DNA of 64,000 nt from positions 20,471 to 84,470 of the IMG/VR virus record IMGVR_UViG_2791355311_000001. One strand, given 5' to 3'. Positions 28,797-41,265 of this stretch are shown in pieces. Numbering within the stretch: position 1 is the first letter of the stretch; each line of letters starts with the position of its first letter. This DNA comes from a virus. Its lineage: Duplodnaviria > Caudoviricetes. Under the pieces are notes generated by a model. It was given only the letters and a program-made list of their open reading frames with translations. It did no database searches and was not told where the DNA came from. Position numbers and translations under genes: made by a program.

Positions 28797-29034
28797 CTTT
28801 ATACTCCTTAATTGTTTGTATTAAATTTAAAATGTGTTTTTGCTTTTCTATTGCTAAAATTCTTGTCCTATCATCATTTGATGAGTTGTTAAAAGTTGCT
28901 TGTGCTTCATATAGCAAACTCATCAGTTGCTCCAATATCGCCCGTGTCAGGGGGTTGTAATATTGGGAGATTTCCTTGTTCGCTAATAGCTCCTGCTCCA
29001 ATATCGCTAGTTCCTGCTCCCTTGTTAATAACAT
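28783..29034 (-). CDS. Small phage protein downstream of the portal
   Basis: Overlaps the scaffold start; typical position. Confidence 0.55.
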   Translation of the reverse strand: MLLTREQELAILEQELLANKEISQYYNPLTRAILEQLMSLLYEAQATFNNSSNDDRTRILAIEKQKHILNLIQTIKEYKDDRE

Positions 29035-29112
29035 CTTGTAAGCTCTCTTCCTTTCCTAGAAATTCATCAGTATTCTTAACACCATACAACGGTAAAAGCA
29101 TTCTGATAATCT
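28907..29112 (-). pseudogene. Portal protein, C-terminal fragment separated by the insertion
   Basis: Joins in frame with 39849-41265 once the element is removed: ...ANGK-IIR-MLLPLYGVKN... Confidence 0.9.
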
Positions 29113-29114
29113 TG

Positions 29115-29120
29115 TATGAT
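29115..29120 (+). promoter_or_regulatory. -10 box of the circle-junction promoter
   Basis: TATGAT lies exactly 17 nt from TTGACA (39828-39833) after circularisation. Confidence 0.85.
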
Positions 29121-29126
29121 TCCCCT

Positions 29127-29350
29127 ACAACATTTATAAAAGTTCTACATTCTCAAATCATACTTTTATAAATTGTTTAAACAATGTAAAATGATGATAA
29201 CTCGCTGTTAATAATTCAAGTGCTTTGACACTGTTGGGAAGATTTTAGCGATTATCATCGTTTTTGTTACTGATTAAAATCTTAGTAAGTTTAATTAAAA
29301 CTCTACTGAATACAAGAAAAGTAACAAGAACTAAATTAAATTTTACATTC
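29127..29350 (+). ncRNA. IS110 bridge RNA (5' hairpin, target-binding loop, donor-binding loop)
   Basis: Stems 29132-43/29162-73, 29183-92/29340-49, 29193-206/29247-59, 29264-71/29320-27; guides TTAAAATCT and ATACAAG match the donor, TGGGAAG matches the target. End positions are approximate. Confidence 0.88.
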
Positions 29351-29366
29351 AAAAAAGGATTCACAC

Positions 29367-30332
29367 ATGAAAAAATGTTATTTTTGTGGAGTTGATGTAT
29401 CCAAAAATACTTTGGATTTATGTTTTTTAACAAACAACGATAATATAAAACCTAAATATGAAAAATTACCAAACAATAAAGAAGTATTAAAAGCTTATTT
29501 TAATTCATTTATCAGTGATGATATACTTGTAGTATTAGAATATACAAACAATTATCATATAGCATTGCAAGAAGCATTAAGCGAATTAAAAATAAAATAC
29601 TCAGTACTTAACCCAAACAAAACATCACACTTTTTAAAACACCTAACCCATATAAAATCAGATTTAACAGATAGCTATGGACTTGCTTTATATTGTAAAA
29701 TGTTTAAGTCCTATATAAACCCATCTAAATATAATAAAGAATATATATTAATTAAAAGCTATAACACTACAAGCGAGCTTTTATCAAAGATAACAACTCA
29801 ATTAAAAAATCTAAAAAAATCACAATCTTTAACTTATGATAAAGACATAGAAATAATAGTTAAAGATTTAATAAAACATATAGATAGTATAAAAGAAAAA
29901 CTTAACAATATAGCTTTTGAACTACTAAAGCAATACATACCACAAACCGAGCAAATTATAAAAGATAGCAAAGGAATAGGTAAAGATTTAGCTTTAAAAC
30001 TATTCCCACAGCTACATTTTAACAGATTTAAAAATGCAAAAGAATTTATCTCTTTTATTGGCTTATCGCCTAGAATTTATGAATCGGGTACAAGTGTTAA
30101 AAAAACTAAAAAAATAAATAAAATTGGAAGCAGCACAATAAGAAAAGCTTTATTTATGTCTGCTTTATCTTGTATCAGATTTAACGATAAATTTAAAACA
30201 AGATATAACAGGTTAATAGATAGTGGAAAAAATAAAAAAGTTGCTATTGTTGCAGTAATGTGTGCGATAGTCCGATTTTTAAAAAGTTATTTTAAAAATG
30301 AAACAAATACCTATAAATTTAACACAGTTTAA
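29367..30332 (+). CDS. IS110-family recombinase (bridge recombinase)
   Basis: DEDD residues D10 (GVDVSK), E58, D99, D102; GIG; GLSP..YESG with S240; RKALFMSA; KKVAIVA. Confidence 0.95.
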   Translation: MKKCYFCGVDVSKNTLDLCFLTNNDNIKPKYEKLPNNKEVLKAYFNSFISDDILVVLEYTNNYHIALQEALSELKIKYSVLNPNKTSHFLKHLTHIKSDLTDSYGLALYCKMFKSYINPSKYNKEYILIKSYNTTSELLSKITTQLKNLKKSQSLTYDKDIEIIVKDLIKHIDSIKEKLNNIAFELLKQYIPQTEQIIKDSKGIGKDLALKLFPQLHFNRFKNAKEFISFIGLSPRIYESGTSVKKTKKINKIGSSTIRKALFMSALSCIRFNDKFKTRYNRLIDSGKNKKVAIVAVMCAIVRFLKSYFKNETNTYKFNTV

Positions 30333-30492
30333 AATTTTAAAATCTGTGCTTAATAACTTTAATAACAAAAGGAGTATTACAAGACAAGATATATTAAACA
30401 CTACAGACATATCAAAAGATAATTTAAGTAAAACAATTAAAAATGGTTATTTGTTAGAAAACAAATTAAACAAACATTTAAACAGTTTATAA
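30298..30492 (+). CDS. Small winged-HTH-like protein
   Basis: ITRQDILNTTDISKDNLSKTIKNGYL. Confidence 0.5.
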   Translation: MKQIPINLTQFKILKSVLNNFNNKRSITRQDILNTTDISKDNLSKTIKNGYLLENKLNKHLNSL

Positions 30493-30504
30493 AAGGATGA
30501 CACA

Positions 30505-38850: not shown

Positions 38851-38871
38851 TTAAGATAAAAGGATAAAAAA

Positions 38872-39210
38872 ATGGCTAAAACATTAATAAGAAACAAGAT
38901 AGCTAGTAAAACTTTTGGTATGGCTTTGCCTGCTAGTGCTGAAACTGCAAAAGCTTTTGCTGATGTTGCTCTTGAGGGTGAATATGCAATATTTGAAAGA
39001 AAAAGTGAGCAAGGTAATGATACCGAAGCCCAAGTTATAGAATATGTTGTTACTGGTAAGAGTGAGGCAGGTTTTAAAACAACATTTAGTTTTTATGCAA
39101 ATGCTAACAAAACAGAAGTTGATATTAAAACTGCTCTTTTAGAAAAAACTTTCAACGGTGTTAAGTTTGATGAAATTTATATAATTTCGGCTAAATATGT
39201 TAAAGGTTAA
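38872..39210 (+). CDS. Candidate structural protein (paralog 3 of 3)
   Basis: AAAGGA RBS, similar length and pattern. Confidence 0.7.
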   Translation: MAKTLIRNKIASKTFGMALPASAETAKAFADVALEGEYAIFERKSEQGNDTEAQVIEYVVTGKSEAGFKTTFSFYANANKTEVDIKTALLEKTFNGVKFDEIYIISAKYVKG

Positions 39211-39221
39211 TAAACATTAAT

Positions 39222-39452
39222 ATGCAATCTTTAACAAATGAATATTTAGAGTTAGTGCTAACTGCACTAGCTCTTTTCTTATCTGGTCTCAATTGGTTTA
39301 TATCTCAAAAATTATCAAGTTTTTCTTATAGACTTGATAAGATAGAAACATCTTATACTGACACTTATCAGATAAAAGCAGATATACAGCTATTAAAAGA
39401 AAAAATAGATTTCATTATTGAGATGTGTAAAGATAATAATAAAAAGGTTTAA
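39222..39452 (+). CDS. Holin-like protein
   Basis: N-terminal TM plus coiled coil, ends 2 nt before the endolysin. Confidence 0.6.
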   Translation: MQSLTNEYLELVLTALALFLSGLNWFISQKLSSFSYRLDKIETSYTDTYQIKADIQLLKEKIDFIIEMCKDNNKKV

Positions 39453-39454
39453 CT

Positions 39455-39796
39455 ATGCCGTTAGGAAAAGAACAAGAAGATTTCACTAAAGATTTAAATA
39501 AATTACTTACATATTTACATAATAATAACTATAATGTAAGATGTGGTGAACTATTTAGAACACAAGAACAACAAGAAATTTACTATCAAAGAAAACTAAC
39601 TAAAACAAAAAATAGCTATCATACAAAAAAATTAGCTATTGATTTATTTATATTCAAAAACGATACATGGTTAAAAACCAAAGAGCAATTACAACCAATA
39701 GGGGATTATTGGGAGAGCTTAAACAACATAAACAAATGGGGTGGTAATTATAACAGTTTTATAGACTGTGTACATTTTGAAAGAAGAGCAAAATAA
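39455..39796 (+). CDS. Endolysin, M15-family peptidase
   Basis: SYH-x6-D, WGG..DCVHFE; 70 of 113 residues identical to 17366-17710 by manual count. Confidence 0.88.
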   Translation: MPLGKEQEDFTKDLNKLLTYLHNNNYNVRCGELFRTQEQQEIYYQRKLTKTKNSYHTKKLAIDLFIFKNDTWLKTKEQLQPIGDYWESLNNINKWGGNYNSFIDCVHFERRAK

Positions 39797-39827
39797 GCTA
39801 AAATAAAAAACTACAATTTAAATACTC

Positions 39828-39833
39828 TTGACA
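39828..39833 (+). promoter_or_regulatory. -35 box of the circle-junction promoter
   Basis: Perfect TTGACA at the element's right end, with no -10 box at 17 nt in the integrated state. Confidence 0.85.
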
Positions 39834-39834
39834 T

Positions 39835-41265
39835 TTATCTTAAAATCTTCCCATTTGCTTTTTTAAGTTGCATTGCACCTTCCATATCTTGAAGTTGCAA
39901 ACAAACGCCAAGTTGATTACCAATGGCTCCCATTGCTTCCATTAGCCCCTGTTTTTGCACTTCTTTATTTAAAGCACCAATTCCCGTATTTAAACTAACT
40001 GCAAAAGATGGTATTTCATCTCTGCTATATCCCGCAAAGAAATCAGCGTTGCCATATTTCCAAACCAATTTTGCAAGTCTTTCAAATATAGGCTCAAAAA
40101 ATGTTTCGTTAAAAGTTCTAATATAACCTTGTATCCTAACGCTACCTTCATTCGCCATAATGCTAGCCATCGTTGCAGTTTCTTTTCTGTATGTACTTGC
40201 TCCATTTTGTTGAGGGCTTACACCACTTGCTTCGCTCATTTCTTGGTCTATTAAACTTACTGCTAGTTGTGCCACATTTAGATTAGGCGCAGGTAGCACT
40301 TGTAAGGCTGTTGGCTCATTTGTAAATATTGGCAAGCCTATCGTTTCTATTTGCTCCCTTGTAACATTTGCACTTGTGTTAACTACTATCTTTGGCTTTA
40401 ATGCCATATTGATACCATCTATAATTGAGTTTCTTGTAATGTTTATCTCGTCTTGTAAAGGTAAAATACTAGCAAGAGGTGGCTCACCATACACACAAAC
40501 AAAGTCTTGCTCGTTAAAATCTCTAACCTGTGGTGTCATATACCCAAAGATAAAGGGTTGTCCATCTTTTAGCTTAATGCCTTCTCTTAAAAGTGTTTCG
40601 TTAAATAAGGTTGAAACTTCCCATTCCCCATTGATTTGTTCGTAAATATCATATACTTCAAAACGCTCATAAGGCTTAAATTCAATATCATCAAGGCTTA
40701 ATAACACTTGTTCTTTTTTAAATATCTTTCTTTTTGCAAGTGCTAACAAATCATCAGCCGTTAAGATTAGTTTATTGACTATATAACGCACATCTCTTGG
40801 GCTTTTAGCATTTGGGTCAAAGTATATCTCATCTAATTCTATCTCTTCAATAATAGGCATATCACCAGACCAATATACCTTAGCCACGCTTGTTCCTAAG
40901 AACGGTATTTTTTGAAAGATTGGTGCAAATGTGTTATAAAGCTTTAGCATATCGGTGTAAATATCCAAAGCCTCTTGCCATTTGTCTATAACTTCTTGCT
41001 TAGAATTGATATAAGTTTGAAGTTTCGCAAAAGTATCATTGTTAAAATACGTTTCGCTTAAACTATCACTTATACGCTTAGCCTTTGCGTTTATCTTTGG
41101 TATATAAATGCGTGATTTGTTCCTTTTTGCAAGTGATGTTATCTGCTCTTGTTCTAGATTAAGCAAGTAAGCACTATTTAATTTATCAAAGCTAGGCTTA
41201 TACTTTTCAAAGCCGTCCTTCGCATTTGATAACAACTCTTGCAAATAAACTACATCTTTTCCCAT
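39835..41265 (-). pseudogene. Portal protein, N-terminal part, truncated by the insertion
   Basis: P22-like portal motifs; the stop codon lies inside the element's right end; intact length would be 540 aa. Confidence 0.9.

Follow-up and report, generated by a model that had tools for sequence, protein, structure and literature searches.

A virus-like IS110 element in the split portal gene of a tailed prophage: a probably incidental insertion by a bridge RNA-guided Campylobacterota family

The virus record IMGVR_UViG_2791355311_000001 (Duplodnaviria; Caudoviricetes) contains, in the 64,000-nucleotide stretch analysed here (positions 20,471 to 84,470 of the record; hereafter, the window), two tandem tailed prophages, A and B, and the portal gene of prophage B is split by a 10,736-bp element carrying an IS110 recombinase gene. 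Is the portal gene the chosen target of this element, whose excision would act as a reversible switch of the prophage, as a preliminary description of the locus proposed, or did the element arrive there by chance? Examination of the junctions, of the guides and of related elements (sisters) in Campylobacterota genomes indicates that the insert is probably a small temperate virus-like element, which entered the portal gene incidentally, at a near-cognate site, and not as a programmed switch.

The split portal gene and the ends of the element

The whole element occupies positions 29113..39848 (plus strand) of the window as a single copy, with a GC content lower than that of the flanking phage genes. 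The late genes of prophage B lie on the minus strand and include terminase (41848-43173), portal, a 224-aa open reading frame (ORF) and an SU10-type capsid gene (22260-23273). The insertion divides the portal gene into a 5' part comprising codons 1-472 and one base (39849..41265, minus strand), which matches Pfam SU10_portal (E 4.9e-16) and phrog_332 (E 1e-59), and a 3' part encoding residues 473-540, including the conserved LLPL-G motif (28907..29112, minus strand), recognised by frame joining and by alignment with relatives. The break lies inside codon 473; in place, the portal ORF runs on into element sequence and ends at residue 476, which changes one residue and removes the last 64 amino acids. 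Deletion of 29113-39848 gives a 1,623-nt frame encoding 540 aa with a terminal stop only, so the statement of the preliminary description that exact removal restores the frame is confirmed. Its expectation that intact relatives would not end near residue 476 also holds: 31 of 32 portal loci from IMG/VR and the genus genomes run 31-68 aa past residue 473 (the remaining one gave no match), and all ten IMG/VR loci align across the break, with the LLPL-G motif conserved beyond it. Nine of these ten are 509-536 aa long, counted from the start of the match, and the 5' end of the tenth (L014) is cut by the locus edge.

The structural block of prophage B is otherwise colinear with that of the intact relative G019, one ORF being shorter (93 vs 150 aa), which suggests that the insertion is recent. 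Prophage B has likely been disabled by it and is predicted to be defective in head assembly. Promoter and terminator scans gave signals at chance level only, so any polarity on the downstream head genes is conjectural. The likeness to the portal of prophage A noted earlier concerns length, which is close, but not sequence, since the two proteins share only 23% identity over 441 aligned positions; judging from this divergence, complementation of the split portal by that of prophage A is unlikely. Prophage B also carries, at positions 53583-55324 of the window, a RelA/SpoT-like small alarmone synthetase gene (a weak NCBIfam match, below the cut-off) and a Doc-family toxin gene, and part of its tail region (18727-20854) has near-identical 24-mers at other places in the genome, which implies that a further, related prophage segment is present.

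The recombination cores at both ends are CT dinucleotides (29111..29112 and 39847..39848, plus strand), the left one occupying the same position in the sisters and the right one assigned by comparison with them; the stretch common to both ends measures 6 bp. A -35 hexamer, TTGACA, is located at the right end (39828..39833, plus strand), and a -10 hexamer, TATGAT, preceded by an upstream TG, at the left end (29115..29120, plus strand). The two hexamers are spaced by 17 nt in the circular form only, and this layout is the same in 23/23 elements with both ends; the consensus arrangement predicts that a promoter is reconstituted at the circle junction. At one common sister site, represented by 27 loci (21 empty, six occupied), the flanks of all 21 empty alleles abut precisely, with no base gained or lost, and insertion in this family is therefore scarless, though the target core is usually TT and not CT.

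No circle junction was found in the fetched element loci. Sequence run X1 contained pieces of both the element and the phage (260-740 bp, depth ~2-3, mostly ≥99% identical), possibly derived from the same strain, with no joint seen at this little coverage; runs X2 and X3 gave matches of 19-23 nt only, which were taken as chance. In L128:7334-L129:5763, and also in L073, the cargo is tandemly duplicated (unit of ~9,067 bp) and only one IS110 gene is present, ahead of it; in the wider locus of L073, this gene precedes the first copy. The arrangement resembles what rolling-circle or recombination products might give.

Bridge RNA guides and the choice of the insertion site

The IS110 recombinase (321 aa; 29367..30332, plus strand) matches Pfam PF01548 and PF02371 and exceeds the cut-off of NF033542 (147.2 bits vs 140). 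Residues D10, E58, D99, D102 and S240 are invariant in six aligned members, and the enzyme, possessing both the DEDD RuvC-like domain and the C-terminal catalytic serine, is intact. The left end of the element folds into two looped hairpins (z-score -6.39), assigned to a bridge RNA with approximate ends at 29185..29345 (plus strand). Compensatory change is found in 16 of the 27 consensus pairs (14 sequences). In the target loop, the left guide is placed at 29208-29217 and the right guide at 29235-29239, together with a core-pairing AG; in the donor loop, which matches the element's own ends, the guides are placed at 29274-29282 (left) and 29310-29316 (right), all on the plus strand. The donor core is always CT and the target-side core, at 24 left junctions, is TT (18), CT (4) or AT (2), so only the T of the target core is kept. 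The fit of the 10-nt left guide falls into one of two registers, also among close relatives.

The guides covary with the flanks across the family. After the exclusion of eight loci in which the recombinase start was missing or the left end could not be parsed, and of three without a flank, the guide analysis of 33 loci covered 22 elements in 13 guide classes. With one representative per class, guides matched their own flanks at 182/195 positions, compared with a mean of 100 and a maximum of 141 in 20,000 shuffled pairings; three distant members fit at 14-15/15. The genome G522 harbours two copies (L130 and L131) with identical Rep, p253 and p118 proteins (see below), recombinases 83% identical and guides that differ and match their respective sites, which suggests module swap as a route of retargeting. 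Relics of such modules were also noticed: a decayed IS110 gene with a bridge RNA relic bearing a different guide lies in the same genome as the window copy (G000:C1:573090-573570; L135), and shorter left-end-like relics are found near 490772, 714829 and 814475.

The copy in the window fits its site poorly. Its guide matches the portal site at 11/15 positions, tied with L026 as the worst of the 22 elements; the preliminary claim of a guide match is borne out in part, fully for the right guide (5/5) and partially for the left one (6/10). With wobble pairs and one bulge allowed, the left arm scores 7.0 vs 8-10 in 23 other elements, the worst of the 24. As many as 661 positions in the carrier genome score at least 11/15, and an identical 14-mer elsewhere in it is unoccupied. 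A guide-perfect site is absent from the carrier genome and from all 141 genus genomes and occurs in one of 325 family genomes, and the homologous site in 31 intact portals fits the guide at 9/15 at most. Targeting of the portal by the guide, as initially proposed, is not supported by these figures.

The sites of the sisters give a concordant picture. Both flanks are available for 21 sisters. None of these lies in a tailed-phage gene, and most occupy intergenic DNA separating housekeeping genes; the remaining sites comprise one cas3 gene, one uncharacterised gene in an integrase island, two short uncharacterised ORFs and one IS1595 transposase remnant. The cas3 gene, flanked by cas4 and cas5 in a CRISPR-Cas locus, is split by the sister L029 (L029:2574-3641, 13406-14563; guide fit 13/15), and its frame is restored on removal of the element. 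Queries with portal, terminase, capsid and other structural proteins gave no match in 95 sister loci, some of them short or without flanks, apart from a neighbouring prophage integrase in L053, the sole hit. The idea that sisters, too, occupy portal or other essential phage genes thus finds no counterpart among the known sites. The flanks of L021, L025, L034 and L039 contain similar-looking intergenic sequences, possibly a REP-like (repetitive extragenic palindromic) repeat, as for IS621.

These observations make it highly improbable that the element is a reversible switch or satellite that aims at the portal, holds prophage B off, excises on induction and rides in B particles. Such a device would explain the exact restoration of the frame and the perfect right guide, it would agree with the otherwise intact appearance of prophage B and with the targeting of other mobile elements by some sisters, but no element of the family has a poorer left-guide fit, intact portals do not conserve the site, and no phage structural gene was found in the sister loci. 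Nor do carriers of the element co-occur with the supposed helper: B-type portals are found in 2/28 carriers vs 20/113 non-carriers (Fisher p 0.25) and any related portal in 7/28 vs 31/113 (p 1.0), kin not being independent in either comparison. A preprint on IS621, a different enzyme, also argues against a switch, as it describes excision mainly of one strand, yielding in vitro ~34-fold more circle junction than restored target, mostly by a copy-out route that leaves the donor site occupied, and reports that one-arm matches permit insertion (10.64898/2026.08.31.748434). If the recombinase of the element behaves like that of IS621, circles would arise without the portal being restored, and insertion led by the right arm would be nothing unusual.

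Several points nevertheless weigh against a merely incidental insertion. The complete right-arm match and the rank of the portal site, which is in the best 4% of right-arm-bearing sites of the carrier genome (16 of 396 score as well or better), speak against a random choice of site. Among the sisters found, none had this guide, which may have evolved against a slightly different portal allele. Targeting of mobile elements does occur in the family, as shown by the sister in the integrase island and by L032 (200-365, 10025-10200), whose guide fits an IS1595 transposase gene at 15/15, with the same lineage present at L080:741-980. In addition, the sequences had been inspected before the rule for parsing the guides was fixed, and the better of the two registers was taken. 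These points leave some room for an insertion that, though no switch, was directed by the guide and served defence against phages or domestication: the guide would have evolved against a related allele in a tailed phage, or the insertion would have been selected for disarming prophage B, which makes up only ~2% of its genome; the perfect IS1595-targeting lineage shows that guides can specialise on mobile DNA. We consider this explanation improbable, since the homologous portal sites fit so poorly and the case is a single instance; in any case, purifying selection tolerates insertions in prophage genes that are dispensable.

Gene content and the virus-like nature of the element

Relatives of p253, a core protein of the element, are encoded by 31 of 324 other family genomes (28/141 in the genus) and by four genomes, from two further families, among 401 sampled across the phylum, so the element family spans three Campylobacterota families; its named records include C. 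concisus, C. showae, C. ureolyticus and Sulfurimonas sp. Complete members measure 9.7-13.2 kb and share the gene order IS110, p146, Rep, variable block, p253, p118, p117 and p112. Distances between IS110 recombinases track those between the core proteins (Spearman 0.92 for Rep; 0.88 for p253 and 0.88 for p118; 18-19 elements, pairs not independent), which indicates that the recombinase is a long-standing part of the element and not a passenger insertion sequence. Searches in viral collections returned little: IMG/VR scans yielded one weak match (34%) with IS110, none with p112 and, with Rep, one sister adjoining but not within a prophage, and neither p253 nor Rep matched any of 50,697 phage records. 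Rep also had no match among 72,556 plasmids.

The 482-aa protein encoded at 31266..32714 (plus strand) is a probable Rep_trans-type rolling-circle initiator (Rep). Neither Pfam nor PHROG searches revealed a match, and the assignment follows weak Foldseek matches (E 0.003-0.05) of a low-confidence model, with a predicted local distance difference test (pLDDT) score of 42, to the RepDE structures 4cwe and 4cwc, to 4cij and to TATA-binding protein (TBP) folds; the RepDE among these matches is staphylococcal, and Rep_trans enzymes are described as having a TBP-like fold (PMC13595969). The preceding gene (30505..30945, plus strand) encodes a 146-aa protein conserved in the sisters, for which no Pfam, PHROG or meaningful PDB-sequence match was obtained; a role in ssDNA binding is guessed from its position before Rep.

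The middle block (32689..37387, plus strand) comprises ORFs of 105, 125, 108, 221, 378, 65, 253, 53 and 242 aa, which are candidates for virion proteins. Of these, p253 is a conserved core gene and the others vary; the hydrophobic p65, for instance, had no tblastn match in eight sisters. In a wider search, p253 matched 76 representative proteins at E ≤0.001, and the ten that were looked up bore no name. The highly conserved core protein p118 (37403..37759, plus strand) shares 54-68% identity with its counterparts in Campylobacter sisters. Atlas searches with p118 and p253 gave no usable match, their models being poor. After p118, a long intergenic region (37760..38496), with no match of note in Rfam, may represent an origin or a packaging region, and it is followed by the conserved pair p117 and p112 (38497..39210, plus strand). 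The confident model of p112 (pLDDT 90.2) displays a small alpha/beta fold with two beta-beta-alpha-beta-like units, which is not a jelly roll; fold searches gave a best Z-score of 5.0 and no BFVD match at E ≤0.001, which does not by itself imply a new fold. Paralogy of p118, p117 and p112 was considered and rejected, as hhalign probabilities were just 0.3-1%.

The last genes of the element (39222..39796, plus strand) form a putative lysis pair, a 76-aa hydrophobic ORF that hydropathy suggests to be holin-like and a 113-aa M15 endolysin (Peptidase_M15_4, E 3.9e-9, and endolysin PHROGs). Lysins have been replaced among members, with M15_4 here, GH108 in L047 and L049 (the latter also with an Rz1-like LysC) and M15_3 in L048 and four distant loci. 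The endolysins of prophage B (17366-17710) and of the element (39455-39796) are 62% identical, which suggests exchange of lysis genes with tailed phages.

The presence of replication and lysis genes along with a fixed, uncharacterised core is the ground on which the element is regarded as virus-like. The weak model behind the Rep assignment tells against this view, and so does the failure of profile and fold searches to recognise a capsid protein or a packaging ATPase in the element; with no circle junction found either, viral status is unproven. Alternatively, the element might be an integrative rolling-circle plasmid, or a cargo-expanded IS110 with acquired lysis genes, and IS110 loci are reported in a preprint to expand with plasmid DNA (10.64898/2026.08.14.744561). 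Such an origin, which would be compatible with an incidental insertion, appears unlikely, although it deserves more weight than the other alternatives: the core gene order is fixed across three host families with congruent distances, unlike progressive cargo accretion, lysins have been replaced time and again, a sign of selection for lysis, and Rep lacks plasmid relatives in the collection searched.

For a temperate virus-like element, the following life cycle can be proposed. The IS110 bridge recombinase would serve as a dedicated integrase; in the circle, the two ends would form a sigma-70 promoter for expression of the bridge RNA and the recombinase, the donor loop reading the element's own junction and the target loop choosing the insertion site. 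The Rep_trans-like initiator would copy the circle and the holin-endolysin pair would free the progeny. Probably, this copy reached a host that offered no perfect target and inserted itself, with precision, at a near-cognate site, by chance portal codon 473, most likely leaving prophage B defective in head assembly; restoration of the portal would be possible in principle, but incidental.

Relation to known systems and implications

According to the published description of IS621/IS110 (PMC11208160), the element shares with IS621 the DEDD and serine recombinase, the left-end bridge RNA, the circle-junction promoter, the CT donor core and precise insertion; it differs in carrying ~10 kb of conserved replication, lysis and uncharacterised genes, in its relaxed target core and in its two-register left guide. 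Phages integrating by a terminal IS110 enzyme are already known, as reported for the filamentous phages Nf/MDA of Neisseria and phiOH16/Zuza of Thermus (PMC7058167, PMC11437467). Their genomes, likewise small, encode a replication initiator besides the terminal IS110 enzyme, and Nf1 targets a repeat with a CT motif, whereas the present family has lysis genes and many guide-specified sites instead of one repeat family. An FtsK/Zot-like assembly ATPase is given as a hallmark of Efunaviria/Inoviridae (PMC13595969); in 23 elements of the family, no Walker-A motif was found in ORFs of at least 150 aa, and Pfam searches revealed no ATPase. Filamentous phages also have a short hydrophobic alpha-helical major coat protein and a Rep_trans-type rolling-circle initiator; in the element, p65 is hydrophobic but had no tblastn match in eight sisters, and the Rep assignment follows from the weak model described above. 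Cargo-expanded IS110 loci mobilise ~9 kb or more and grow mostly by accretion of plasmid DNA, in contrast to the fixed, vertically inherited gene set described here; the main text of that report contains no mention of Campylobacter or prophages (10.64898/2026.08.14.744561).

The interrupted portal also resembles other arrangements. The sigK skin element is a gene-interrupting excisable prophage, and P4, phage-inducible chromosomal islands (PICI) and PICI-like elements (PLE) are phage satellites. Precise removal restores the frame here too, and a small element resides within a tailed prophage, but the family has neither the one conserved target gene typical of excision switches, judging by the survey of sister sites, nor the co-occurrence of carriers with B-type portals that would suggest a helper. 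Tailless phages similar to PM2 and FLiP have a double jelly-roll major capsid protein; p112 does not show this fold, and the models of p253 and p118 were too poor to give a usable match.

No description of this element family was found in the literature, within a scope not extending to subscription journals and bioRxiv supplements, and there is a fair chance that the lysis-bearing, non-filamentous-looking elements constitute a new phage group. It may tentatively be suggested, though we hold this broader proposal with somewhat less than even confidence, that they represent an undescribed family of small temperate Campylobacterota phages with lytic release, whose virion has no known capsid fold (candidates p118, p117, p112 and p253) and whose bridge RNA is naturally reprogrammed, retargeting occurring by guide change and by swap of the recombinase-RNA module. 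Such phages would be able to knock out cas3, transposases and other prophages, and the portal insertion would capture a guide before its adaptation to a new host.

Taken alone, the split portal is a one-off disruption of a gene, which offers a ready in vivo reporter of IS110 excision, by cut-out or copy-out. The family as a whole amounts to a natural collection of bridge recombinases for inserts of 10-13 kb. It includes at least 16 guide-site pairs, together with natural near-misses and a relaxed target core, and so bears directly on the specificity of bridge editors and on natural guide reprogramming. It is common in oral Campylobacter relatives (28/141 genus genomes) and, if particles exist, it would be a phage group with unrecognised structural proteins.

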